Of a stretch of 50,745 nucleotides of DNA, positions 6,985-50,745 are shown piece after piece. This DNA comes from Chthonomonadaceae bacterium (GTDB lineage: Bacteria; Armatimonadota; Chthonomonadetes; Chthonomonadales; Chthonomonadaceae). Numbering within the stretch: the first letter of the stretch is position 1; every line of letters starts with the position of its first letter. The stretch spans positions 1 through 50,745 of the forward strand of contig DASRGZ010000118.1 of the NCBI GenBank assembly GCA_035650735.1, in the 5' to 3' direction. A program made the translations under genes and the position numbers. The notes under the pieces are model-generated. The model had not been told where the DNA came from, did no database searches, and saw only the letters and a list, made by a program, of their open reading frames with translations.

Positions 6985-8751
6985 CTACTTGAATACAGTC
7001 ATCAGAGCGGGCCGGATCGCCGCCAGGGAGGGAATCGCCTGTACCACGCGCAGCCGCTCCCGCACGAACGCCTTCGCCTCCGCGCGCCGTCCCGCCGAAA
7101 CCAGAGCTTCGGCCAGTTCCAGCCAGGCATCGCACTGGAACGGCGACTCGGCTAGGCTGGCCCGATAGGCATTTATCGCCTCACCTCTATTCCCAAGCCG
7201 GGCCGCGATGCGCGCCAGTCGCAACTGCGCCTCCGCCTCCATCGGCCAGGCGCGCACCGCCGCCTCCGCCTGCCGGTACGCCTCTGCCTGCCGCCCGTTC
7301 GCCAGCAGCAGATCGCTCACCAGCGAGCGGCAGCGCCAGGCGATGGCGGCGCGCATCTCGCGTGCCCAGCGTTCCTCCTCCATCCGGTGCTGCATCCAGA
7401 GACGCCCGATGTGTGCGTCCCACAGGTCACTCCGGCGCGGGTAGCCGAAGCCATCCACCTCCGCCGTTCCCGCTTCGCATTGTTCTGCGGCGACCACGAG
7501 ATGAGCCGCTGCCTCGGAAATATCGTTCGGCGCAGTCGGAGGCGCCCCGCCGGTCGCCTCGGCGCGATCCAGCAGCAGAAAGCCCAATCCCATGCGCGCC
7601 AGAGCATTCTCCGGCAGCCGCTCTACCGCCTGCCGTGCCTGCCGGATGGCTCCGGTGAAGTACTTTGCTTTGTGTTCTGGCGGCAGGCAATAGGCCATCC
7701 AGCCGTAGAGGGCCGCACGCGCCTCTGCCAGCCGACCGGGATCGTATCCGCTCCGTTCCGCCTCGTTGAGCAGCAGCAGCGCCGTCATCGCCGCCCCTGG
7801 CTCCGCACTGCCGTAGATCTGAAACGCCTTGCGAATCTGACGCTCGGTGGGAGGCAACTGGGCGCTCGGACGGTAGCCCGCTTTGTCAAGGTTGGCCTCG
7901 ATCAGGGCAAACAAGGCGGCGTTATGCTGCTCGTGCGTATGCTCGCCGACGGCCCTCTGCCGTCCCGCCTCGGCAATGCGCGCGCGCTCCTCCGCGTGGG
8001 CCAGGTAATAATCCAGCAGCGCCTCGAAGTTATCGGCGCTGTAATAGACGCAATGGACGCGGTCGACGAATATCTCCTGAGCCTCGGCGTTCTCGACCTC
8101 GTTAAAGACCAGCGCACCGCAGGCCGCCGCCTCATACGCCCGCTGGTTGGTTTCGCCCCGATTGCTGCGGTTGAAGACGATTTTGGCGCGGTTGAGCAGG
8201 CGGACGTAATCCTCGCCGTGATGCCCGGACGCGATCACGATCCAGTACTTATCCGACAGCCGGGCCAGTCTATCCAGCCAACGGTTGCGCTCCCCCCACA
8301 CTCCCGGGTTGAGCGCGCCAACGAACAGAACGTCAATATCCTTCTGCACGTCGGGTAGAACGCGGTGGAGGTCGGCGCCCACGCCCCAGAAACGGGCAAA
8401 CAGCGCGTTCTCGTGGCCGGCAGCCTGCAATAGCGCGCAGGCGTTCTGTTCGGAGACGATGAGATCAAAAAAACCCGCGCCATTCCAGATCGCCCTGCCG
8501 CCCCGATCCCAATCGGAGACGCCCGCCACCGTCAGCCCATCAAAGGTTTCGATGTCGGTCGGGATGGGGAAATAGCCCAGGCTTGCATGGTAATAGACAT
8601 CGGGCTTCCATCCGGGCGGACACAGCGCCTGCATTTCGGCAATGGTGGTCGGCGGCCCGCCGTTGCGGCCATAGCGCACGCAGCAGACCTCGTAGCGCGC
8701 CGCGTCCAGACCGGCGGGAACGGCGTCCTGGAACCCCATAAGCACACGCAT
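6985..8751 (-). CDS. Glycosyltransferase (CgeB/Glyco_trans_1_2-like, GT-B) with C-terminal TPR-like repeats, paralog 2
   Basis: DIDVLFVG, YVRLLNRAKIVFNRS, NQRAYEAAACGAL, ARIAEAGRQR; helical TPR-like tail; AAGGAG before ATG 8751. Confidence 0.85.
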   Translation of the reverse strand: MRVLMGFQDAVPAGLDAARYEVCCVRYGRNGGPPTTIAEMQALCPPGWKPDVYYHASLGYFPIPTDIETFDGLTVAGVSDWDRGGRAIWNGAGFFDLIVSEQNACALLQAAGHENALFARFWGVGADLHRVLPDVQKDIDVLFVGALNPGVWGERNRWLDRLARLSDKYWIVIASGHHGEDYVRLLNRAKIVFNRSNRGETNQRAYEAAACGALVFNEVENAEAQEIFVDRVHCVYYSADNFEALLDYYLAHAEERARIAEAGRQRAVGEHTHEQHNAALFALIEANLDKAGYRPSAQLPPTERQIRKAFQIYGSAEPGAAMTALLLLNEAERSGYDPGRLAEARAALYGWMAYCLPPEHKAKYFTGAIRQARQAVERLPENALARMGLGFLLLDRAEATGGAPPTAPNDISEAAAHLVVAAEQCEAGTAEVDGFGYPRRSDLWDAHIGRLWMQHRMEEERWAREMRAAIAWRCRSLVSDLLLANGRQAEAYRQAEAAVRAWPMEAEAQLRLARIAARLGNRGEAINAYRASLAESPFQCDAWLELAEALVSAGRRAEAKAFVRERLRVVQAIPSLAAIRPALMTVFK

Positions 8752-8764
8752 GTACAACTCCTTG

Positions 8765-8904
8765 CCCTCACCCCGGCCCTTCTCTCGGCAGGCTAAACCC
8801 TGCCGCTATGGGGCCTGCGGCCCGCTGCCCACCTACGTGGGCAGAGGCAAACCCCGACTTCTGCTCTCCCCTCTCCTTCGCAAGGAGAGGGGCCGGGGGT
8901 GAGG
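8765..8904. repeat. Composite element: family C arms (CCCTCACCCCGGCCC / GGGGCCGGGGGTGAGG) enclosing a family B unit
   Basis: Direct reading; lies between the two glycosyltransferase paralogs. Confidence 0.85.
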
Positions 8905-8932
8905 TTTATGGGGGCTATTAAGCCGGGAAGAG

Positions 8933-10729
8933 TCAGGCTAACGCCGCTGTGAGCGCCGGGCGGATCGCCGCAAAGGAGGGGATGGCCCGCACCACACGCA
9001 GCCGCTCCTGCACAAACGCCTCCGCTTCCGCGCGCCGCCCCAGCGCCACCAGGACGGTCGCCAACTCCGGCCAGGCCTCATAGGCCAGGGGCATCACCGC
9101 CAGTCCTTCGCGATAGCAGAGGACGGCCTCCTCCAGACGGCCCGTCATCGCCGTGCAGCGCGCCAGCCGCAGCAACGCCTCGCCGTTCTGCGGCAAATCT
9201 TGCGCGGCGGCGAGAGCCTGCCGATACGCTTCCTCGCGCTGATCGTTGGCCAGAGCCAGATCGCTCAGCATGGAACGGCAGCGCCAGGCGATCCCTGCCC
9301 GCTTTCCCCGCGCCCACTCCTCCGTATCCACCCCGCGCGCCAAATAGACCCCCTCGATATAGCTGTCAAAGCTATCGCTCCAGCGCGGATAGCCGAACCC
9401 CTCGATAGCCGTAAAGGAGGCCGTTCCGCCCTCCTGCGCCAACGATTTCTCGCAGCGCTCCGCAGCCGCTACCAGCGCTAGCGCCGCCTCCGCGATGTCG
9501 TTTCTGCCGACCGGGGGCTTGCCCTGCGCGGCCTCGGCCCGCTCCAGGAGCAGAAAGGCCAGCGTCATCTGCGCCACCGCGTTGTCCGGCGCGGCCTGCA
9601 CCGCCTGCCGCGCATGGCGCAGCGCCTCGGTAAACATAGGGATTTTCTGCCCGGCGGGAAGGTAGTGCGCCACCCATCCGCAGAGCGCCGCGCGCGCCTC
9701 CTCCAGCCGCGCCCGGTCGTAGCCCTCCCGCTCCGCCTCCTCCAACAGCGCCAGCGCGGAGGAAGCCGACGCCGGCAGCGCGCAGGAGAACATCTGCAGC
9801 GCCTTGCGGACATGGCGCTCGGCGCGCGGCAGGCGGGCGCTCGGACGGTAGCCCGCTTTGTCAAGGTTGGCCTCGATCAGGGCGAACAGGGAGTTGGCGT
9901 GCGCCTCCTCCGTATGCTGCGCCAGAATACGCTCTCGCGCCGCCTCCACGATGCGCCGCCGCTCCTCCTCGTGAGTCAGGTAATACTCTAGCAGCGCCTC
10001 GAAGTTGTCGGCGTTGTAGTAGACGCAGTGAACGCGGTCCTCAAAAATCTCCCGCGTCTCCTCGCCCTCTTCCTCGTTAAACACCAGCGCCCCACAGGCC
10101 GAGCCATCGTAGGCGCGCTGGTTAGTGCAGCCGTTGACGCTGCGGTTGAAGACGATTTTGGCCCGGTTGGTCAGGCGGACGTAGTCCTCGCCGTAGTGCC
10201 CCATGGCGACAACGACCCGGTACTTGTCCGACAGCCGCGCCAGCCGGTCCACCCACCGGTTGCGCTCGCCCCATACCGCCGCGTTGAGCGAGCCGATGAA
10301 GAGGACATCAATATCCTTCTCTACCTCCGGCAGAATACGATGTAGCTGCGGGTTGGCGCCCCAGAACCGGGCAAACTTCGCGTTGGCGTAGCCGCTAGCC
10401 TCCAGCAGCGCGCAGGCGTTGCGCTCGGTGGTGATGAGGTCGAAGAAGCCGGCGCCCGCCCAGACCGCACGCCCGCCGCGATGCCAGTCCTGGATATTGG
10501 TGGCCGTCAGCCCCTCAAACTCCTTGATGTCGGTTGGGATGGGAAAGTGGACGAGGCTGGCGTGGTAATAGACATCCGGCTTCCATCCCGGCGGGCACTG
10601 CTCCAGCATCTCGGCGATGGTGGCGGGAGGTCCCTGTCCGTCCTTGCGGTAGCGCACGACGCGCACATCATACCGGCGTGTGTCGTAGGCGGAAAGCTCG
10701 TAATCTTGGTGTCCGACGAGAATACGCAT
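8933..10729 (-). CDS. Glycosyltransferase (CgeB/Glyco_trans_1_2-like, GT-B) with C-terminal TPR-like repeats, paralog 1
   Basis: DIDVLFIG, YVRLTNRAKIVFNRS, NQRAYDGSACGAL; colinear with 6985-8751; AGGAG RBS. Confidence 0.85.
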   Translation of the reverse strand: MRILVGHQDYELSAYDTRRYDVRVVRYRKDGQGPPATIAEMLEQCPPGWKPDVYYHASLVHFPIPTDIKEFEGLTATNIQDWHRGGRAVWAGAGFFDLITTERNACALLEASGYANAKFARFWGANPQLHRILPEVEKDIDVLFIGSLNAAVWGERNRWVDRLARLSDKYRVVVAMGHYGEDYVRLTNRAKIVFNRSVNGCTNQRAYDGSACGALVFNEEEGEETREIFEDRVHCVYYNADNFEALLEYYLTHEEERRRIVEAARERILAQHTEEAHANSLFALIEANLDKAGYRPSARLPRAERHVRKALQMFSCALPASASSALALLEEAEREGYDRARLEEARAALCGWVAHYLPAGQKIPMFTEALRHARQAVQAAPDNAVAQMTLAFLLLERAEAAQGKPPVGRNDIAEAALALVAAAERCEKSLAQEGGTASFTAIEGFGYPRWSDSFDSYIEGVYLARGVDTEEWARGKRAGIAWRCRSMLSDLALANDQREEAYRQALAAAQDLPQNGEALLRLARCTAMTGRLEEAVLCYREGLAVMPLAYEAWPELATVLVALGRRAEAEAFVQERLRVVRAIPSFAAIRPALTAALA

Positions 10730-39868: not shown

Positions 39869-42124
39869 ATGCACCGCACGCTTTTTGCTTTCGCTCTTCT
39901 GTGCCTGTTACTTCTCTCGGCGAGTAGCGGCTACGGCGCGACCGTGGCGACCGAAGACGGCCTGGTGCTTGCGTTCCGCGATTCCGATGCCGCCATAACC
40001 GAAGTGGGGGTGGATGGCAGGCCCGTGAAGCTCAACGGCTCGCCAGGCGGCTTCTACGTCGTAGATATGGTGGCCGAGAAGCGGCTGGGCCAGATGGACT
40101 ACCGGAGCGCCGCCTATCCCGGCACACGCCTGCAAGCGACGGCGCGGCCCTCGCCGACGGGCGTGGTCATCCAGGGAAAAGCCAACGACCTCTGGGTGCG
40201 GGCGCGCGTGGAGAGCCGGGGCGACTACTTGGCCGTGACGGGCGACCTGGTCAATCTGCGCCCGCAGGAGGATCGCGCGGTCATCCTCTATTTCCGCCTG
40301 CCGGTGGAGGGTAGCGGCGCGCGCTGGGGCCGGAACCTGGGCGTGGAGGAGCCCATCCAGCCCGGACAGCGCTACCTGAACGCAACGGAATTTCACCAGG
40401 CCTACCGGCCCGCGATGTCCCGCCTGCCTATTGCCACGCTCTCGGGCGCGGGGTGGGGCCTCTCCCTGGCGCAGCCGATGGACGTGCCCCGCTTCTTCCG
40501 CATCGCCTATCAGGAGCCTTACGGCTTGCAGATGGAGTATGAGTTCGGTCTCTCGGCCATCACCTGGAAGTTCCGCAACCGCGCGCCCTTCCGATTCCTC
40601 CTCTATCGCCACGATCCAGCCTGGGGCCTGCGGTCCGCCTTCGAGCGCTACTACCGGTTTTTCCCCGAGCTGTTCCGCAAGATCGTCCGCGATGGCATGT
40701 GGATTGACGATTGGGAAGGCAAGCGTGCCCAACTGGGCGATCCCACCGATTACGGCATCGTCTTCAACGAGACGGGCAACTGGGCCGATGAGGAGCAGCG
40801 GTCGCAGGATGTGCTTTCCATGATGTACATCGAGCCCTGGTGCGACCATATCGAGGGCACGCCCGACCAGATCCCGGCCATGGCCAAGGATACGCCGGAG
40901 AACCGGCAGGAGGCGCGCTTCGGGCGAGGGGCCGACCTGCGCACCAACGCCCTGCAACTGCTCAACTCGGCCGTCTACGGCCCGGATGGCAAGATCCTGG
41001 ACCCGCGCACGGCCGCCGTCGGGGGATTCTATGTGGAAGGCACGCCCGACAATCCCTACTACCGCTACCTCACCAATCCCGATCCCGAGCTGCCCACCCC
41101 CTTCGGCGGCTACAACCGGGCGCAGAAGATCATCCGCTACGACCTCTACACCTCCTGGGGACGGCAGACCGATCAGCCCCAGTACGAGAAGGACGGCATC
41201 TATTACGACTCCATCGGGGCCGCATGGGCCGGCAGCCACCTCCAGAACTTCCGGCGCGACCACATGCCCTACGTGGATTTCCCGCTCACCTTCGACCACA
41301 AGACCGGCAGGGTGACGATCACGCACGGCTTCTCGGCCATCGAGTTCCTGCGCTGGTGTACGACCCAGGCCCACAATGACGGCAGGCCCACGATGGGCAA
41401 CGCCAGCCCCGGCTATTTCCTGCCCTTCGTGGCTCCTTACCTCGATATGGGCGGCGCCAACGAGAACTACGAATACGAGGCCGACTTCGCCGGCCTCAAG
41501 GAAGAGCGCGCGCTGATGTACCAGAAGCCGCTCTCCTACCTCAACAACCGGGAGCTTGCCGATCCGGCCAGAGCCGAGGCCGTCCTGGATCGCCTGCTGC
41601 TCTACGCCTGCTATCCCGGCGCCGACAGCGTCCAGCAGATGGTGGCGCAGCGCGCGCTCTACCGCGCCTACATCCCCCTCTACAACGCGCTAGGCGCTGC
41701 CGGGTGGGAGCCGGTTCCCTATGCGCGCGTCTCGCCGCCCGATGCCTGGTGCGAGCGGTTCGGCAACGCCAAACGCGGCTACTTCTTCGCCCTCCGCAAT
41801 CCCGGCAAGGCCCGTGAGCTAACCCTGACATTGGACCGAAAAGCGCTGGGGATAGAGAGGGCTGCGTTCCAGGCCGTCGCCGGCTGCCAGATCCAGAGCG
41901 CTGGTGCCGACAGCGTGCGGCTGGCCGTGCCGGCGCAATGGACCGCGATCATCGCCGTGAACCGTCCCGATGCCGGTGCGCTGGCGGCTCTACATCGGCG
42001 TGAGCGGATACGATTTAGAGCCCTAACAAAACTTGGCCGTCAGGCTCTCCCCTCACCCCGGCCCTCTCCCTGCAAGGCAGAGGGAGAACGGGTTTTGTTT
42101 GGCACTCTTAAGCTGTCCCCATAA
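39869..42124 (+). CDS. Large secreted hypothetical protein, possible glycoside hydrolase
   Basis: Signal peptide, beta-rich N-domain, MYIEPW and DGIYYDS barrel-like motifs; C-terminal tail runs through a palindromic repeat. Confidence 0.65.
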   Translation: MHRTLFAFALLCLLLLSASSGYGATVATEDGLVLAFRDSDAAITEVGVDGRPVKLNGSPGGFYVVDMVAEKRLGQMDYRSAAYPGTRLQATARPSPTGVVIQGKANDLWVRARVESRGDYLAVTGDLVNLRPQEDRAVILYFRLPVEGSGARWGRNLGVEEPIQPGQRYLNATEFHQAYRPAMSRLPIATLSGAGWGLSLAQPMDVPRFFRIAYQEPYGLQMEYEFGLSAITWKFRNRAPFRFLLYRHDPAWGLRSAFERYYRFFPELFRKIVRDGMWIDDWEGKRAQLGDPTDYGIVFNETGNWADEEQRSQDVLSMMYIEPWCDHIEGTPDQIPAMAKDTPENRQEARFGRGADLRTNALQLLNSAVYGPDGKILDPRTAAVGGFYVEGTPDNPYYRYLTNPDPELPTPFGGYNRAQKIIRYDLYTSWGRQTDQPQYEKDGIYYDSIGAAWAGSHLQNFRRDHMPYVDFPLTFDHKTGRVTITHGFSAIEFLRWCTTQAHNDGRPTMGNASPGYFLPFVAPYLDMGGANENYEYEADFAGLKEERALMYQKPLSYLNNRELADPARAEAVLDRLLLYACYPGADSVQQMVAQRALYRAYIPLYNALGAAGWEPVPYARVSPPDAWCERFGNAKRGYFFALRNPGKARELTLTLDRKALGIERAAFQAVAGCQIQSAGADSVRLAVPAQWTAIIAVNRPDAGALAALHRRERIRFRALTKLGRQALPSPRPSPCKAEGERVLFGTLKLSP
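42050..42087. repeat. Family C unit inside the 3' end of the 751-aa CDS
   Basis: CCCTCACCCCGGCCCTCTCCCTGCAAGGCAGAGGGAGA. Confidence 0.8.
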
Positions 42125-42441
42125 ATTGGTCCAATTTTGTTGCGACCTTAATCCGAAGGGATTGGACATCCCCGGCCGTCAACGACCGGGGGTTATTCTT
42201 TGGCTCCAACAGGTAAGGAAGTCATAGCCTGGCTGCTCTACTCACTGTGGCACATTTCATAGTTAGCGTGTGCTGCCCTTAATAGCGCGCCATGCGACGG
42301 CAGTTTACAATAACGACAGCCTGTACGCAACACACTCCCGCGCCTCGCCAAGCTCTTACGGTTCTCAAAAGCCGGGCGCACATCTTCTGCGCAATGGACT
42401 CTTGCCGGTCTCGGCGTGAGCATCCAGGAAGGAGCCAAGAA

Positions 42442-44877
42442 ATGACCAATCCAGAGGGGCCCATCTATGTGGCCACCGCCTTTCCCGTCCGGATTGACGA
42501 CGGGAAAAACGTCTACAACCTTGTCTATTTCCCGGACAAGAACAACCAGCAGCTACAGCGTGAAGGCCAATCCCCCCACTACTACTATCTGCCCCACGAT
42601 ATTCGCATCGCCAAAGACATGAGCACGGGCGACTACAAGTTTCACCTGCTCCACTTTGAGGGCGTGCGCTCCGGGGATACCAATGTCGGGGTGACCGGCA
42701 CGCAGGAGATCGCGGGCGGACTGCTGACCCTCTCGGCGACCTGCGCTATTCCCGGCGAGGTGCTTCTGGCGGCCCACGACCAGTTCCTGGGCAACTGGCG
42801 CGGCAACGACGACGCCTTCTTCGGCTGGCGCAACGGAGTGCAGCCAAAGTTCGGTCCCGTTCCCATCCGGTCGAACATGGTCTCGATCTCCAACATCTCC
42901 CCAACGCAAAACCGCAGCGTGCCCACGATGGAGGACAGCGGCACCGCAGGTCGCGGTCCCGGAAGCCGCAACCGGCCGCCCGTGATCACCACCTCCACGC
43001 GCCCGCGCATCGCCCCCTCGCCGCGCTCCATTCCGGTGCAGATGGCCTTCCGCGATGGCGGGAACCTGGACCTATGGTACGCTAACCTGACCGGGCAGGG
43101 GCCGGGCGCGATTGATCTGCAGGCCGAAAACGCCCTGGCCGGGCTGCTGGGCAGCATGCCGACGCTGCTACTCTGGAGTTCTTTCCACGGCGCGGAGGGC
43201 GGCATCGTCATGTCCCAGGCGCTGCAAATACCCATGTGGACGCCCTCCGGCCACCTGAGCATTCACGGCCATTGGGACCGCATCTTCGAGCATTTCTCCG
43301 CTGCCGGCCACTATGGCGGTTTCTTCTGGTCGGCCGATATACAGGCGGAGTTCAACAACCTGGTCATCAACGGCGACATCCAGGTGGATCTCTCGATAGA
43401 CGATACGCTGCCCGGCTCAGACAAGATCCGCGAGATGCTGCAGAAGCAGAGCGACCTCGTCTACCAGTCGTTCCTCGATGAGGCCAAAAAGGTCATCTTC
43501 GACCCGGCCCCGCCCAACGTGCAGCCGGCGCAGGCCTCCGGCGGCTTCCTGGGGCTGGGGGGCGGCTTCGCCCTCAAGGCCCGCGTGGACAGCCAGAGCC
43601 TCGACCTCAAGTTCGAGGAGACCCTCAACACCCGTTACTTGCAGACAGACGTCATCAGCAGCCCGCTCACCGGCTTCTACGAGGAGATCAAGAAAGACCC
43701 GAACGCCGAGAAGAAGTACTTTACGACCGCCTATGTCGGCGACTGGGAGCGCAAGGTCGCGCGCTTTGTCAAGCCGGTCGTCAACTGGCCCGATCCCTCC
43801 AAGAAGTGGATCGGCGAACCGGTCGCTTTCCTCTCAGCCCAGATCGGCTACCCGAACACAGCCGGCGAGATCCAGTGGGTCGGCCACGTCTTCCAGAGCA
43901 CGGACGCCCCCGATACTACCTGGCCGCCCGCCATGGAGATGAAGGCCGCCGCCGACGTCGTCAACCCGCCCGCCGGGTGGACCCCGGATAAGACCTTTAT
44001 CAAGCGGCAGGTCCACTTCACCGAGCCGCCCGACGAGACGCTCTATCCGTTCTCCCGCGTCTTCATCGAGAAGAACATCGTAGACCTCGATCCGGGCGAT
44101 AACGGCACGCTCACCAACGACACCACCATCGAAGTCCGCGCCGACAGCGCCGGAAAGCTGGATGTCGGCCCCATTTCGCTTAACATAGACCTGGACAACG
44201 CCAAGCAGGAGGTGGAAGTCGCCTTCCAGTGCGAGGGGAAGACCGCCGACGGCCAGGACCGCCCGATCACCAAGTTCCTCTGGAAATATGAGGACCAGGG
44301 GGAAGACCGTTACTGGGCCATCTATACCGGGCAGCTGGACTTTGTGCCCCGGTATAAGTACCAGGTGCGCGTCATCGTCAAGGGCAGCCTGTTCACCAAA
44401 GGCATGGAGTGGACAGGCCCCTGGGTCGAAGCGGCGGGCAACGGGCCGCTGATCGTCACGGTGCCCCAGTCCGATGATCCGGGCGTGCAATCGCGCAGCC
44501 TGATCCCGGGAGCGGCTCCGATGGCAGCGACGCCGGCCCATCCGATGCCGCCGCCGCCCATAACCGGGGTTACCGCTCCGGCGTCCGGAGGAGCCGCCCG
44601 ACGGCCCACCGGCCCGCCGCCGACCACGCGCACGACGCCGCCCGCTACCGCCGTCACCTCCACCCGGCCGCCTAGCACGCGCCGTGGGATGCCTGCCGAG
44701 GCGAACGGCGAGAATGGCGCGGGCGATGAGGGCCTGGTGCTGGTCCCCTGGAGCGCCACGCCGCCAACCACCGCCGAGCGCAGCCAGCCGATGGTCGGCA
44801 CAAGGGCGGATCGCAGCATGGAGGAGAGCGGCGCCTACAAGGGGACCGATGTGAGCGGCTACCGCCTGAAAGGGTAG
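42442..44877 (+). CDS. Uncharacterised 811-aa protein (shared module, beta-sandwich-like region, Pro/Thr-rich tail), no signal peptide
   Basis: AGGAAGGAG RBS before ATG 42442; long ORF with GC3-rich codons; YYYLP...F.L....GGLLTLS motif. Confidence 0.85.
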   Translation: MTNPEGPIYVATAFPVRIDDGKNVYNLVYFPDKNNQQLQREGQSPHYYYLPHDIRIAKDMSTGDYKFHLLHFEGVRSGDTNVGVTGTQEIAGGLLTLSATCAIPGEVLLAAHDQFLGNWRGNDDAFFGWRNGVQPKFGPVPIRSNMVSISNISPTQNRSVPTMEDSGTAGRGPGSRNRPPVITTSTRPRIAPSPRSIPVQMAFRDGGNLDLWYANLTGQGPGAIDLQAENALAGLLGSMPTLLLWSSFHGAEGGIVMSQALQIPMWTPSGHLSIHGHWDRIFEHFSAAGHYGGFFWSADIQAEFNNLVINGDIQVDLSIDDTLPGSDKIREMLQKQSDLVYQSFLDEAKKVIFDPAPPNVQPAQASGGFLGLGGGFALKARVDSQSLDLKFEETLNTRYLQTDVISSPLTGFYEEIKKDPNAEKKYFTTAYVGDWERKVARFVKPVVNWPDPSKKWIGEPVAFLSAQIGYPNTAGEIQWVGHVFQSTDAPDTTWPPAMEMKAAADVVNPPAGWTPDKTFIKRQVHFTEPPDETLYPFSRVFIEKNIVDLDPGDNGTLTNDTTIEVRADSAGKLDVGPISLNIDLDNAKQEVEVAFQCEGKTADGQDRPITKFLWKYEDQGEDRYWAIYTGQLDFVPRYKYQVRVIVKGSLFTKGMEWTGPWVEAAGNGPLIVTVPQSDDPGVQSRSLIPGAAPMAATPAHPMPPPPITGVTAPASGGAARRPTGPPPTTRTTPPATAVTSTRPPSTRRGMPAEANGENGAGDEGLVLVPWSATPPTTAERSQPMVGTRADRSMEESGAYKGTDVSGYRLKG

Positions 44878-44890
44878 CTGGGAGTCTGCC

Positions 44891-47800
44891 ATGCGTTACC
44901 CGAATCCCGCCGGACCCTCCGGCCAACAAAGCTGGCAGACACGAGAGGTCGGGGTCGGAGACATCCGACCCCGAACCCTTCAGATGCTCCCGGATGCCGC
45001 CCACACGGGGCAGCCGGACGTCGGCCAGATCGTTTACTATCTTCCCGTTGCCCCGCAGCTGGGGCGCACGGAGAATGGGGAGCCGGCCTTCTCCCTGACG
45101 CTCATCCTCCGCCGCCAGCCCACGCCGGAAGAGGAAACCCTCGATGGGCTGATACAGCAAGGGCGGCTAACCCTGGGCCTGACCCTGGATGTGCCGTCGG
45201 AGGCCGTGGAGGCGCTGGGAACCTCCCCTGACATCGCCTACCGCCCGCTCTTTGCGCGGCAGGTACGTTTCGCGCTCGCAAAAGACGGCCAGGCGCTTGA
45301 GGGCGGCGAAGCCGTCGCCACCGGCGCGAACGCGCATGCCGGACTCAGCCTGGACCTGGATCGGGAGAACACGCTGGCCGTTCTGGACGCGCTGGAGCGC
45401 GTGCCGTCTGCGATCACTGTTTGCGCCGAGGTCGCCTACCGCACCGTGATGCAAGCCCAGAAACTTCACTGGAAGGGCAACTGGGCCGATATCTACGACT
45501 TCCTGAAGCCCTCCTTCGGCGCGGACAACACGATCCCGTATCCGGCGCTCCAGCAGCAGTTCCTCGATCTGTTCCAGGCAGACCTGCTTGCTGCCGGCTA
45601 TGTCTCCGCTTCCGGGCAGGAGACGCCGGTGGCCGAGACGGAGCGCGCCGGGCTGTTTAGCGCGTTTCTCCGGCTGGCCAACCGGCAGATTTTGCAGGCC
45701 AACACGCGCCTGCTGCTCGACGATCCCGGCCAGACCTACGCGCTCCTGGACCGGCCCAGCCCCTATTACGCGCTGGATGTTTCGCAGACGTCTGCCGGTT
45801 TGGCTGCCGGCGAGCAGACCCTTATGCTCACGGCGCCTCTGGAACAACTGATCGGCGGCTTGCTGGATGGACGGGACGCCAACGCCTATATCCATCCCGT
45901 CTGCCCGGACCCCGCCGGCAGCGGCGCGCTGGTTCCCGTGCCGCCGCGGGTCACGACGCCCTCCTCCAGCCGACAAAGCCGCGACGTGAGCGCCGCACCT
46001 ATGTGCCTGGCGGCGACGGGCGGCCCGGTCAAGTCCATGGCGCTGGCCATGCGGCCGGATACCTCCCAGCCGGTTCCCGCTAAGGCGCTGGCCGCGAGCG
46101 ACCTGGCGCGTCCCATTCTCACCGACGGCGGCAAACACCGGTGGATCTACGACGACCTGATCCTGGATCGCCCGGACATCCCGATTCTGTTGAGCCTGCC
46201 GGTGATTAACGACGCTCAGCCCTCCGTCGTCTGGCGCGACCGGGCCACGCCCTCGAAATACTGGTATGCGCCGGCCTTTGAGGTCGTTCAGCCCACGCCC
46301 AACCAGACGGCGGACGCCAGCCCGTTCCTGTTTACCTACAAGTCCTCGGGCGCGACCGCGGACGGACAGCCCGGCCTGGAGGCGACGATCCGGTTTACGC
46401 TGCGCCCGATCATGGCCCAGGAGGTCCAGGCCGCCCTGCAGGCGCTCGGCAACCCGGAGGCGCATCCGGTGCCCACCAATAACCTGGCCGTCGCGCTCTC
46501 GCTGCCCTATCTGGATCAGAACCACGCGACCCAGACGCAGCGGCTTGCCGCCACCGTGGAGCCGACGGGAGACACGCTGCTGGTCACGGTGTCGCTGTTA
46601 GATGCCACCGTGCGCATCTGTTACGGCGCGCTGGCCTATCCCAACTTCCAGAGCATTCCGGCCAAGCTGATCGTCACCTACGCCTTCAGGGCCTACGTTC
46701 CCATCCCGGATGACGATAGACTGCAACTGGTCTACGGCGGTAAGATCGCGGTGACGCCAGTAGTGCGCCCGGAAGTTATGGAAAAGCCCATCGCGAGTAG
46801 GGCCTATCTGGACGCATCGGAACTGGCCTACAAGATGCCCATCGGCGAGATGCGCTTTCAGCGCGAGGCCCCGCAAGCGGCGAGTTATGCGGCCGTGGTA
46901 CGGGACTATGCGCCGAACGCGGCGCTCGCGCCGTCGCCATCCGCGAGCATGGGGCGGGGTGGGGCCGTCGCGTTGATGGAGCGTGCGGCAGCAAGCGCGG
47001 TGGCGCTCGCTCCCGCTCCGGCAGCCACGGCGACCGCTGTTGTCACCACGCGGCCTGCCGCCGCCGCCATCGCTCCCGCCGCACAGGCTGTCGCCCTGAA
47101 ACCGGGGGTCGTCGTGCGGCCCGATATCGAGGTCGCCGGCATCCTCGACAAGCTGCGCCTGCAGGTCCACTTCGCGATCCAGACCCAGTTTCACCAGGAG
47201 GAGCCCGTCGCGCTCTTCCCCTGCGCGACGCTGGGCGCGTTCTACCTACGGGAGGCGGATGGGGAGAAGGCGCCCATCGGCTGCCAGGATACCTTCCAGC
47301 TTGGCCAGATGGTTTTGAAGCTCTATGAGGAGATTCCAGAGCTCAAGAACGAGAGCTTCTACCGCGTCTTTCGGTCGCTTCAGCAGCCGGGCCGCTTCCT
47401 AGTGCTGCCTAACGTCTACCGGATCACCCGCTACGCGGCCACGGAGGGCAGCCAGGCCTACCATCCCGTGATCGTCGTCCACTCTGCCCACGACGCGACG
47501 ACCGCCTCCAATAACCGCTATTTCTTCGAGGCGACGCTGGAGCCGGACCTGCCCCCCTATGTCCGCAGGGAACTCCAGAGCAGACTGAAAGCCTATGCCG
47601 CCTCCCCGGTCGTCGAGTACCCGACCGAGATTGAAAGCGATACGGCCTATGCCTGGGTTCTCGGCGTGACGGACACGCAGCATATCGAGCTCAAGGCGGG
47701 CAACGCCTTCTGGGTCAGTTTCGGCACCGACGCGGCCAATGCGCTGATCCTGGAGTCCCTGCTGAAAAACTCCGGCATCAGCGGGGTCGCCACCTTCACC

Positions 47801-48430
47801 CTGCCGGATGGGATGGCGCTGCAATCCCAGCTAGAACTCAACCTGAGCCGCATCGTCGGCCCCTGGAGCAGCGGCCCGCTTGCCGTGCAGGTCCAACCTG
47901 GCAGCGCCACCCTGACCAACCGCATCGAGACCCCCGTCAACGTGACGCAGCTACGGCTCTACGACGCCACCGGCGCGATGCAGGCGGTTCCGGCGGAGCG
48001 CACGCTGGCTCCCGGCGAGTCGCAGCAGGTAACGCTGCCGGGGCCTGCTGGGGAGGTGCAGGCGGTCTACCAGGTGCCGCCGGGCAGCCCGGCCAGCATA
48101 GAAGAGATCGCGACCTATCTGGAGGACATCCGTACCAACGTGATCTTCGTCAACCTGGTCAACTACGCCAACCACGATCTGACGCAACTGGCCGTGCAGG
48201 CCCGCATCAAAGACGTGGATCAGACCTATAATCTGGCCTTTTCGGAAGACCAGCGCATCAGCGATGTGGCGATCCAGTTGCCGCTGACGACCTATCTGGA
48301 CAAGCACATTCTCCAGTTTCAGGTTACCAAGACGCTTAGCGCGGGCCAATCGGTCGCTACATCCTGGCTGGAATGGGACCTGGCGGCCCAGGGCAACGTC
48401 ATCAGCGTGACCTGGGACATGATCCAATAG
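44891..48430 (+). CDS. Uncharacterised 1179-aa protein with three apparent copies of the same module, no signal peptide
   Basis: Starts 13 nt after the previous stop with GGGAG; VYYLP/YWYAP/FLVLP-initiated modules separated by low-complexity linkers. Confidence 0.87.
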   Translation: MRYPNPAGPSGQQSWQTREVGVGDIRPRTLQMLPDAAHTGQPDVGQIVYYLPVAPQLGRTENGEPAFSLTLILRRQPTPEEETLDGLIQQGRLTLGLTLDVPSEAVEALGTSPDIAYRPLFARQVRFALAKDGQALEGGEAVATGANAHAGLSLDLDRENTLAVLDALERVPSAITVCAEVAYRTVMQAQKLHWKGNWADIYDFLKPSFGADNTIPYPALQQQFLDLFQADLLAAGYVSASGQETPVAETERAGLFSAFLRLANRQILQANTRLLLDDPGQTYALLDRPSPYYALDVSQTSAGLAAGEQTLMLTAPLEQLIGGLLDGRDANAYIHPVCPDPAGSGALVPVPPRVTTPSSSRQSRDVSAAPMCLAATGGPVKSMALAMRPDTSQPVPAKALAASDLARPILTDGGKHRWIYDDLILDRPDIPILLSLPVINDAQPSVVWRDRATPSKYWYAPAFEVVQPTPNQTADASPFLFTYKSSGATADGQPGLEATIRFTLRPIMAQEVQAALQALGNPEAHPVPTNNLAVALSLPYLDQNHATQTQRLAATVEPTGDTLLVTVSLLDATVRICYGALAYPNFQSIPAKLIVTYAFRAYVPIPDDDRLQLVYGGKIAVTPVVRPEVMEKPIASRAYLDASELAYKMPIGEMRFQREAPQAASYAAVVRDYAPNAALAPSPSASMGRGGAVALMERAAASAVALAPAPAATATAVVTTRPAAAAIAPAAQAVALKPGVVVRPDIEVAGILDKLRLQVHFAIQTQFHQEEPVALFPCATLGAFYLREADGEKAPIGCQDTFQLGQMVLKLYEEIPELKNESFYRVFRSLQQPGRFLVLPNVYRITRYAATEGSQAYHPVIVVHSAHDATTASNNRYFFEATLEPDLPPYVRRELQSRLKAYAASPVVEYPTEIESDTAYAWVLGVTDTQHIELKAGNAFWVSFGTDAANALILESLLKNSGISGVATFTLPDGMALQSQLELNLSRIVGPWSSGPLAVQVQPGSATLTNRIETPVNVTQLRLYDATGAMQAVPAERTLAPGESQQVTLPGPAGEVQAVYQVPPGSPASIEEIATYLEDIRTNVIFVNLVNYANHDLTQLAVQARIKDVDQTYNLAFSEDQRISDVAIQLPLTTYLDKHILQFQVTKTLSAGQSVATSWLEWDLAAQGNVISVTWDMIQ

Positions 48431-48477
48431 AACGGGAGGGGCACTCAGTTTGCTCATGCGGCCCTCAGCCTGGCAGA

Positions 48478-48783
48478 CCTCACCCCCTAACCCCCTCTCC
48501 TTTGTAAGAAGAGGGGGAACGGTGAAGCCAGGTTCTACCCTCATCCCCGGCCCTTCTCCCTGATAGGGAGAAGGGAGACGAGAAGCCAGGTTCTCCCCTC
48601 TCTCGCAGCGTGGATCGCTAGGCGGAGGGCTGTCGCGAGGTGTCGCAAGGCGGAGCCGGAGGCCGTAACTCCGGCGACCCTTGCAGTGGGCCGCACCATG
48701 GTAGGCCCGACCCTGGCAGTAGGGGCTAGAGGTGAGGGCTTCTGCTCCCCCCTCCTTGAGAAGGAGAGGGGCCGGGGGTGAGG
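48478..48783. repeat. Family C multi-unit mosaic containing family B flanking sub-repeats
   Basis: CCTCACCCCTAACCCCCTCTCC, CCCTCATCCCCGGCCCTTCTCCC, terminal GGAGAGGGGCCGGGGGTGAGG; GGCCCGACCCTGGCAGT is the reverse complement of 11276-11292. Confidence 0.8.
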
Positions 48784-48852
48784 TCTATTGAGGATAGGTG
48801 CGAGAACTGAATGACCCTGAGGAAGCGGAAGAGCAGACAAGGAGCGGTGGCA

Positions 48853-48906
48853 ATGAGCGATCAAAAATCCCGCTCACCGCTGCTCACGACCCACTGTCTA
48901 CAATAA
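48853..48906 (+). CDS. Possible 17-aa upstream ORF MSDQKSRSPLLTTHCLQ
   Basis: AAGGAG RBS; in frame with the protease; TAA stop overlaps the protease RBS (TAAGGAG). Confidence 0.3.
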   Translation: MSDQKSRSPLLTTHCLQ

Positions 48907-48918
48907 GGAGTTGTGACA

Positions 48919-50745
48919 ATGAGCGATGAGACCACAAACCAGGGCAGCTACTACTACGCCAACGGCCAGCGGATTCCGCTGGTTCAGGAGCCGGGCGTCT
49001 ATGCGGTGCGGTTCAAGACCGGCGAGCGCGCCGACTCCCCGGGGCTGTCTCTGATGGCCCGCCGCATACTCCGAGATCAATCGGAGAGCGTCAACTTTAT
49101 CCCCAACTATGGGCTGCAAGTCTATCGGACCAATACCGCCGTGGACACGCCCATCCAGGTCTTAAATCGGGAAGAGAGCGTAGAGTTCGCCACGCCCGCG
49201 TACCGGCGGCGGATTGAGGGCCAGACAAGCGATGTCCTCTACGTCACCAACCAGATCCTGGTGCAGTTCAAGCCCGACGTAGACCGCCAGACGATAGACG
49301 CGCTCAACCAGAAATACCAGACGCGCATCGTCGAGCCCCTCAAATACGCGCCCAACGGCTACCTGCTGGAGCTGGAGAGCGGGCCGAACGCCAATCGCGC
49401 CGTCGAAATCGCCAACGCCTACTACGAGTCGGGGCGGGTGATCTTCGCGATGCCTAACCTGATCAAGAAGCGCTATATCCGCTCCACTGCGGCCGTCGAG
49501 CCAATGATGGCGACCGCCGTGGCGACCGCTCGGCGGGATGTTTCCGAGGGCGGGGAGTATCTGGAGCAGCAGTGGCATCTAAGAACGGCTAAGGTGGTGG
49601 ACGCCTGGGAGCTTCCGGGCCTGATGTGCCCGCAGGGAGACCCCAACATCACCATCGCCATTCTCGATGACGGCGTAGATGTGGCCCACCCGGAGTTTAA
49701 CAAGACGCTCTCCAATGGCAGCGCGAAAGTGGCCATACAGCACGATTTCGCCGCCAACTCCGACGACGGCTCTCCCAAAGGCGCCGACGATAACCACGGC
49801 ACGTCATGCGCGGGCGTGGTGACGGCGGGCGGCGTCAAAGCCTATGGGGCCGCGCCCAACTGCCGCCTGATGGTCGGCATCACCCCGCTCTATCTCGGCG
49901 CGGTCGAAGAAGGCCAGATGTTCCAGTGGGCAGCGGACAATGGGGCCGACATCATCAGCTGTAGCTGGGGCGGGCGCGACGGCATCGGCCTGGTCGAGCC
50001 GCTCGCTGACAGCACCCGCACGGCCATCCATTACTGCGTGACCCAGGGCCGCGGCGGCAAGGGCATCCCGATCTTCTGGGCGGCGGGCAACGGCAACGAG
50101 TCGCTCGACCTGCCCGGCAAGCCCTGGCAGGCACGCGACGGCTACGCCGCCAACTATCCCGATGTCATGGCTATCGCCGCCTCCACCAGCAACGAGACCC
50201 GCGCCTACTATAGCGATTTCGGGCCGGAGGTCTGCGTCTGCGCGCCCTCCAGCGGCAACCTGGCCGCCGGCGAGAAGGGCATCTTTACCACCGACCGGGC
50301 CGGCGCGGACGGCTATAATCCGGGCACAACGGCCAAAGGCGACGCCGAAGGCAACTACACCAACAGCTTCGGCGGGACCTCCTCCGCTGCACCGCTCGTC
50401 GCCGGGATCGCCGCCCTGATGCTCTCGGCCAATCCTGACCTCAAGCCCAGCGATGTGCGCGATATTCTGGGCAAGACGGCGGACAAGATCGGCAGTGCCT
50501 CGGAGTACGATTCCAACGGGCACAGCGAGAACTACGGGTACGGGCGCGTGAACGCCAAAGCCGCCGTCCAGATGGCCAGCAGCTACCGCGGCAGCCCGGC
50601 GCCTGCCTCCGGCAAGCCGACGATCCAGGGGCCTGGGAGCATCTCACGCTCCAGCAATGACCCGCCCGAGTTCCAGGTGGACCCCAGCCCGAACCCTTAC
50701 TACATCGTGGAGGTCGCCACCCAGGCTCAGCTCTTCGACACGACC
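48919..50745 (+). CDS. S8 subtilisin/kexin-like serine protease, 3'-truncated by the window end (absent from the ORF track)
   Basis: Manual translation from ATG 48919: IAILDDG (D 49666), NHGTSCAG (H 49795), ISCSWG, GRGGKG..FWAAGNG, FGGTSSAAP (S 50380); prodomain without signal peptide. Confidence 0.93.
   Translation, partial: MSDETTNQGSYYYANGQRIPLVQEPGVYAVRFKTGERADSPGLSLMARRILRDQSESVNFIPNYGLQVYRTNTAVDTPIQVLNREESVEFATPAYRRRIEGQTSDVLYVTNQILVQFKPDVDRQTIDALNQKYQTRIVEPLKYAPNGYLLELESGPNANRAVEIANAYYESGRVIFAMPNLIKKRYIRSTAAVEPMMATAVATARRDVSEGGEYLEQQWHLRTAKVVDAWELPGLMCPQGDPNITIAILDDGVDVAHPEFNKTLSNGSAKVAIQHDFAANSDDGSPKGADDNHGTSCAGVVTAGGVKAYGAAPNCRLMVGITPLYLGAVEEGQMFQWAADNGADIISCSWGGRDGIGLVEPLADSTRTAIHYCVTQGRGGKGIPIFWAAGNGNESLDLPGKPWQARDGYAANYPDVMAIAASTSNETRAYYSDFGPEVCVCAPSSGNLAAGEKGIFTTDRAGADGYNPGTTAKGDAEGNYTNSFGGTSSAAPLVAGIAALMLSANPDLKPSDVRDILGKTADKIGSASEYDSNGHSENYGYGRVNAKAAVQMASSYRGSPAPASGKPTIQGPGSISRSSNDPPEFQVDPSPNPYYIVEVATQAQLFDTT

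Follow-up and report, generated by a model that had tools for sequence, protein, structure and literature searches.

The contig DASRGZ010000118.1 of a Chthonomonadaceae bacterium (assembly GCA_035650735.1), which in its entire length of 50,745 nucleotides is the window analyzed here, ends in three genes designated P1, P2 and P3. These form an operon that is conserved across scattered bacteria and archaea and has apparently not been described before; its mechanism we infer. Judging from sequence searches, P1 and P2 apparently represent an undescribed protein family, while P3 is a protease. A pore of some kind is the probable product, an estimate that rests on a single sequence pattern, a hairpin in P1. 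Our preferred and still tentative reading is a beta-barrel pore of two components, licensed by a protease, whose subunits belong to an unnamed superfamily and act on bacterial envelopes. Few folds are known to form beta-barrel pores, and self-contained, protease-triggered pore systems with several subunits are rare in prokaryotes. If the reading is right, a large unnamed superfamily with a testable three-gene minimal form would provide microbial conflict with a further class of machinery and would show how complement-like cascades can arise independently. Even without a pore, the exchange of subtilase and caspase behind one common domain in a conserved operon is a clear and testable puzzle. 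Among the titles and abstracts found in a search of published full text, which did not extend to subscription journals and supplementary tables, none gave an account of a P1-P2-protease operon.

The P1-P2-protease operon

42442..44877, plus strand: P1, 811 aa; N-terminal superfamily module, two beta-sandwich domains and a disordered Pro-rich tail; putative pore-forming subunit
44891..48430, plus strand: P2, 1179 aa; a copy of the module that has a short polar hairpin, two more beta-rich modules and two C-terminal sandwiches; putative anchor/initiator
48919..50745, plus strand: P3, 609 aa and open; kexin/mirolase-like subtilase with prodomain (residues 102-180) and S8 domain (243-542)

An earlier inspection of the letters and translations (the sequence-only reading) had described three co-oriented genes of 811, 1179 and more than 609 aa, the first two 13 nt apart, and these coordinates were borne out. 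It had also found no hydrophobic N-terminal signal in any of the three proteins, with which the best 11-residue hydropathy windows agree (1.43, 0.10 and 0.60 for P1, P2 and P3, respectively). An alternative in-frame ATG at 42292 would make P1 861 aa long; the start was placed at 42442 because a purine-rich ribosome site is located there and homologues begin there. P3 is cut by the end of the contig, and the reading of downstream sequence that had been recommended stops at this point, since the last 21-60 bases had no match on any other contig of the assembly.

Scanning genome contigs yielded 60 loci, spread over many phyla and including two methanogenic archaea. Seven of these end at P1, leaving 53 informative loci. 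P2 is next after P1 in 51 of the 53, the exceptions being L054, with a P1 fragment alone, and L057, with a second P1-like gene. Two of the 51 end directly behind P2; in 46 of the other 49, the gene after P2 encodes a protease that looks intact, namely an S8 subtilase (21) or a caspase-like C14 peptidase (25). The linkage to proteases that the sequence-only reading had proposed to look for in the gene neighbourhoods of homologues is thereby found with two unrelated protease folds. The Pfam scan of third genes covered 38 of the 46. The remaining three loci are L038, L040 and L053; the third gene of L038 encodes a DUF6345 protein, presumably linked to the caspase clan, with His-Gly and Cys motifs present. 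In L057 (13962-16622), the two P1-like genes precede an unassigned 291-aa gene and a ricin-lectin zinc peptidase named from weak matches.

P3 itself is an S8 subtilase (Pfam E 1.6e-43) with a prodomain, intact D250, H293, N391 and S488 motifs and an SWG motif. The kexin-like protease of the sequence-only reading is hence confirmed by its Asp-His-Ser triad and by its closest solved relatives, i.e. mirolase, furin (E 4.5e-20) and kexin. Across the partner proteases, His/Cys motifs were present in 25 of 25 C14 proteins, and SWG and the post-oxyanion Asp in 20 of 20 whole S8 proteins. P3 also contains the beginning of a second domain:

50617..50745, plus strand: start of an unnamed domain of about 115 aa, made up of the last 42 residues of P3 (E 7e-11 to the domain profile); putative adaptor

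This domain has no sequence match in the PDB. One to three copies are found in all 46 S8 or C14 third genes, and none in the multi-paralogue loci described below. Its occurrence beyond the operon was assessed from 13 database matches without gene context, 10 of which are S8 or C14 proteins, together with the loci collected here. It is fused to S8, C14 and M15 peptidases and to a glycoside hydrolase, and one database protein (P0176) is a P2 fused to a caspase and this domain. It also occurs in a fourth, non-protease gene in four loci. In this gene of about 300 aa (L015 9166-10032, L023 19245-20201, L035 19356-20318 and L056 11136-12119) it is joined by another unnamed domain, and the product is a candidate immunity, inhibitor or cargo protein. 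Many homologues bear peptidoglycan domains: an M15 peptidase domain in 10 and an Rv2525c-like hydrolase in one of 20 scanned S8 third genes, and PG_binding_1 in 4 of 18 scanned caspases, 1 of 59 superfamily proteins and one P2-like gene.

In a quick P1 tree of 46 rows, from which L007, L029, L033, L036 and L041 with split or partial P1 genes were omitted, 20 of the S8-linked rows cluster together (support 97), and the window P1 falls outside this cluster, beside a caspase-linked row (87). The L022 row has an implausible branch, probably owing to a wrong open reading frame (ORF). Since P1 and P2 of the window are closest to a caspase-linked operon and P3 is closest to S8 genes of other operons, the sequences suggest a protease swap in the history of the window operon. 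The distribution is patchy: none of 36 genomes of the same family carries the operon. One plasmid record holds its caspase form. A phage origin was rejected, with no match in 50,697 phage records or viral contigs. Complete operons with M15 peptidases occur in Methanosarcina and Methanotrichaceae (L020 and L021), both enclosed by bacterial rows in the tree, and a P2 homologue (P0180) in Halogeometricum; archaea of these groups lack murein. Operon genes are split over two frames in the metagenome-assembled L007, L031, L033, L036 and L041, by sequencing error or decay, and in L045 an additional P2-like gene, a short one, diverges from the operon (7729-9768, minus strand).

Homology and anatomy of P1 and P2

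42442..43746, plus strand: P1 module, residues 1-435; shares homology with P2 1-345 and with the unnamed superfamily
42925..43062, plus strand: Arg-rich low-confidence linker of P1, residues 162-207, with a predicted local distance difference test (pLDDT) score of 49-74; candidate cleavage loop
43294..43353, plus strand: amphipathic beta-hairpin of P1, residues 285-304, with aromatic tip; candidate membrane-spanning hairpin
43747..44472, plus strand: two Ig/FnIII-like beta-sandwiches of P1, residues 436-677
46196..47860, plus strand: P2 central modules, residues 436-990; retained by the shorter forms of P2 and by the P2-like genes that multi-paralogue operons contain

BLASTP of P1 against P2 was not significant (best E 0.49). 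Profile comparison gave a probability of 97% (E 8.7e-11) over P1 3-437 and P2 5-343, the two module halves also matched separately (94.7% and 95.1%), and reversed controls reached at most 6.4%. The common module of the sequence-only reading is therefore upheld, and both motif pairs cited for it lie inside the alignment. Its genes, module and protease stand, whereas its proposal of a common Trp-containing C-terminal unit was not confirmed: these units gave no match (profile probability 0.53%, E 0.11) and are, in AlphaFold2 (AF2) models and fold searches, predicted beta-sandwiches and nothing more.

Neither P1 nor P2 had a match in Pfam or NCBIfam up to E 1, and no PADLOC model matched them, such models (subtilase and caspase) being matched by the partner proteases alone. 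PDB sequences gave no match for P1, P2 or the module profile, and an ESM Atlas search returned unnamed clusters only. In these searches the claim of no named family thus holds, and the two findings named beforehand as fatal to the proposal, i.e. a characterized family for P1 and P2 or lack of homology between them, were not encountered. Database relatives numbered 199 among 7,996 scored candidates for P1, 120 of them listed at 45-61% identity, and 60 among 8,000 for P2.

The AF2 models are fair, with a mean pLDDT of 79 for P1 and 84 for P2. Fold searches with the whole models returned generic beta-sandwich tails at background scores; these searches barely probed the N-terminal module and do not show its fold to be new. 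The P2 central modules match the P2-like genes of multi-paralogue operons (profile match 97.6%). A division of P2 into three copies of one core was rejected, as module 1 matched module 2 weakly (15.8%) and module 3 was unmatched.

The P1 hairpin sits in a helix-hairpin-helix segment of the N-terminal module. Among P1 homologues, positions 285, 287, 289, 291 and 293 and the even positions from 296 to 304 are hydrophobic, with at most 5% charged residues, and the inward positions are polar. The outward face is small and uncharged, with aromatics flanking it in both strands, as in membrane barrels, and the alternation is present across 147 rows of the superfamily alignment as well. In the AF2 models, P1 270-318 forms a single long hairpin, and the corresponding part of P2 takes the shape of two helices, a pair of conformations that may resemble cytolysin hairpins in the pore and in the soluble state. 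With this hairpin, the pore-former branch of the sequence-only reading gains in strength.

In the P1 linker of about 51 residues, R/K is found at position 195 in 97 of 120 homologues and at position 204 in 85 of 120; P2 has conserved Arg at 352 (44 of 59) and 364 (40 of 59). Kexin-type and metacaspase-type enzymes cleave after basic residues, which the conserved linker Arg fits. Together with the kexin-type motifs, it is suggestive of activation by cleavage after Arg/Lys. The linker is missing from several short family members and from the protease-less locus L053.

Proposed mechanism and alternatives

In our preferred reading, the three cytoplasmic proteins would leave the cell by lysis or another route. 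P3 would dock on P1/P2 through its domain or domains of about 115 aa, and would in many homologues bind or cut peptidoglycan. It would then cleave after Arg in flexible linkers of P1 (around 195-204) and P2. P2, with its polar hairpin, would anchor and seed the assembly, and many P1 copies would add on, each unfolding its helix-hairpin-helix into one membrane-spanning barrel hairpin. Pore formation, cleavage and binding are predicted roles of P1, P2 and P3.

A number of observations weigh against this. The strict amphipathic test, passed by 1 of 2,624 P1 windows (the hairpin) vs 0 of 4,620 P2 windows, had its criteria chosen after the segment had been seen; by alternation alone 285/296 ranks 11th, and ordinary sheet strands alternate too. 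The hairpin is short unless the neighbouring helices unfold, and Arg is frequent in GC-rich linkers generally. L053 lacks a protease behind P2, and of the 10 Pfam M15 matches just 5 have zinc motifs that look intact by pattern. No signal peptide is evident in this clade by the hydropathy window (0 of 119 P1 and 1 of 59 P2 homologues over the cut-off), and no conserved export or immunity gene appeared among the neighbourhood clusters of the 60 loci. In 64 metagenome loci of another, likewise cytoplasmic clade, from the best 80 of 190 matches, many of them short, a prenyltransferase-like gene (27) is commoner than caspase (9) or M4 (3). Complex prediction for two copies of P1 1-435 (0.01 and 0.10 vs a mark of 0.42) gave no evidence either way.

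Finally, the protease could serve as cargo and not as the trigger. Developed fully, this becomes a delivery pore, in which P1/P2 would be a translocon of the binary-toxin kind and the third gene a payload loaded via the 115-aa domain. The variety of proteins joined to that domain, including the non-protease fourth gene, fits such a scheme, as do the phospholipase D, prenyltransferase-like, M4, C70 or neprosin genes that other clades carry instead. We consider it unlikely, however, since the third gene here almost always encodes a protease, probably one with Arg specificity, where a free payload slot should vary more, and since payloads that run to about 1,100 aa and include a self-maturing subtilase would seem ill-suited to unfolding translocation. 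Slightly more doubtful still is a protease-matured structural polymer (fibre, cage or surface layer), with the hairpin as a strand-exchange or barrel element outside membranes. The fold-search matches at background level, the membrane-barrel-like outward face of the hairpin and the patchy spread, which suits conflict genes, all speak against it. Gasdermin-like self-lysis, in which a stress or phage cue would fire the protease, P1 would perforate the cell's own membrane and peptidoglycan enzymes would complete lysis, agrees with the cytoplasmic nature of all parts, with STAND-WD40 or kinase genes near 6 of the 60 loci and with the alternation of caspase-like and subtilase partners in defence modules described in the available part of one report (PMC12642450), but is improbable, as neither a sensor gene nor a fusion to a sensor is conserved, P1/P2 match no model in PADLOC, and peptidoglycan-binding domains on module proteins and a secreted clade point outward.

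Comparison with known systems

The likeness to CDC-like (CDCL) toxins and gasdermins is one of analogy. A mode of action resembling that of CDCL toxins, complement and protease-effector modules is proposed, while the sequence and motif tests for these gave negative results. Complement and other MACPF systems use several paralogues with specialized hairpins and a protease trigger; the 4-6-gene operons of the superfamily likewise hold several paralogues with differing hairpins, and a protease is the putative trigger here. The MACPF signature, [YWF]G[TS]H[FYV]-x6-GG, was found in none of 326 sequences (0 of 120 P1, 0 of 60 P2 and 0 of 146 superfamily proteins). P1, P2 and the module profile matched no MACPF sequence in the PDB, and the MACPF fold, a bent four-stranded sheet with two helical clusters, was not among the matches listed for the whole P1 and P2 models, in searches which barely probed the module.

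Binary translocons of the furin-activated protective antigen type have one amphipathic hairpin per subunit and docked cargo. The operon resembles them in the former (for P1), in a putative kexin-type activation and in possible cargo via a common docking domain; it differs in having no sequence or fold match, a self-encoded protease and bacterial cell-wall instead of animal receptor domains.

One parallel drawn by the sequence-only reading was with CDCLs. A motif of the CDC type is worded as an aromatic pair then YGR, and this pattern was found in 0 of 120 P1, 0 of 60 P2 and 3 of 146 superfamily proteins. The Thiol-activated cytolysin family gave no Pfam or NCBIfam match up to E 1 and no PDB sequence match for P1, P2 or the module profile. 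As set out in the portion of the source available, the two-component CDCLs of Bacteroidota consist of adjacent large and small paralogues with a proposed anchor and polymerizing subunit. They are cut after Arg/Lys by the target's C11 protease, undergo a helix-to-hairpin change and have a bacterial target; they carry SpII signals, a CDC fold with two hairpins and YGR/GG motifs (PMC11169675). P1 and P2 are similar as adjacent large and small paralogues, with anchor and polymer roles, an Arg/Lys cut, a helix-to-hairpin change and a bacterial target proposed. Unlike CDCLs, they have no signal (SpII-type by hydropathy window in 0 of 119 P1 and 1 of 59 P2 homologues), one clear hairpin, no YGR signature and an operon-encoded protease with its own adaptor-like domain.

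The operon also has in common with gasdermin, Pepco and EACC1 modules a cytoplasmic effector and an interchangeable caspase-like or subtilase partner, and the adjacent dedicated protease of the gasdermin type is found in 46 of 49 informative loci. It differs in having two large paralogues, no sensor and peptidoglycan domains. No gasdermin model of PADLOC or Pfam matched P1/P2. The gasdermin fold has a short C-terminal inhibitory peptide; in the P1 model the module is followed by a pair of sandwiches and a long tail, and no gasdermin was among the listed fold matches. Pepco and EACC1 are, in the part of the source at hand, protease-effector defence modules with small single effectors tied to sensors (PMC12642450).

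The wider superfamily

A nine-row module profile matched 2,314 clusters at 50% identity (E <=0.001) and 1,390 at 1e-10, and the module was without a named Pfam domain in all 59 superfamily proteins scanned. Counting centre genomes, the window's phylum has it in 6 of 201 genomes, and three other samples in 3 of 121, 1 of 201 and 5 of 201. More distant operons contain 4-6 paralogues with a P2-like gene, and in one clade the N-termini are signal-like (7 of 7 tested). Gating by a protease is not general, as prenyltransferase-like or phospholipase D genes occur in many multi-paralogue operons. Of the protease-gated hetero-oligomeric assembly advanced by the sequence-only reading, the undescribed family, the P1/P2 homology and the protease linkage are supported. 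Possibly, and with the same reserve as for the mechanism, the superfamily is a new structural class of beta-barrel pore formers in bacteria and archaea, ranging from a minimal set of P1, P2 and a protease up to cascades like that of complement, in which 4-6 paralogues take part, with a dedicated adaptor through which unrelated proteases and cell-wall hydrolases can be exchanged.

Some operon configurations deserve separate description. Besides five paralogues and a P2-like gene, L063 (1142-15578) and L065 (13313-17627) include a gene for the core only, a phospholipase D gene and a cyclase/prenyltransferase-like fusion. The signal-bearing L068, L069 and L073 have five paralogues and a P2-like gene, followed by a terminal papain-like or HExxH gene (HExxH by eye). 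Prenyltransferase-like genes (27 loci; the label rests on a weak Pfam match in 1 of 8 scanned) and cyclase-like genes (10) trail multi-paralogue operons, e.g. L090 13009-13974 and L096 12886-14759, and might lipidate subunits. Some superfamily members have an insert resembling, by eye and with no Pfam match, what we take to be an OmpA-type wall-binding domain.

Intergenic and flanking sequence

48431..48800, strand not assigned: palindromic repeat mosaic; genome-wide repeat, outside the system
48853..48906, plus strand: 17-codon ORF whose start lies in duplicated sequence from the beginning of P3; probably no gene

The repeat mosaic noticed between P2 and P3 in the sequence-only reading is real, and was ruled out as a part of the system, the palindromic repeat being found genome-wide (224 copies with <=3 mismatches across 102 of 224 contigs). 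The 17-codon ORF pointed out there is probably no gene and was rejected as a part: its start derives from a stretch of 23 nt in the spacer that duplicates the P3 start region with 87% identity. No sigma-70 promoter or terminator pattern was found upstream of the operon. A signal-bearing 751-aa protein without Pfam match is encoded directly upstream (39869-42124, plus strand), and is placed outside the system because no such neighbour recurs across the 60 loci. BTAD-type regulators lie upstream of several operons (L064 9611-11509, L016 4895-6058 and L053 4449-5291).

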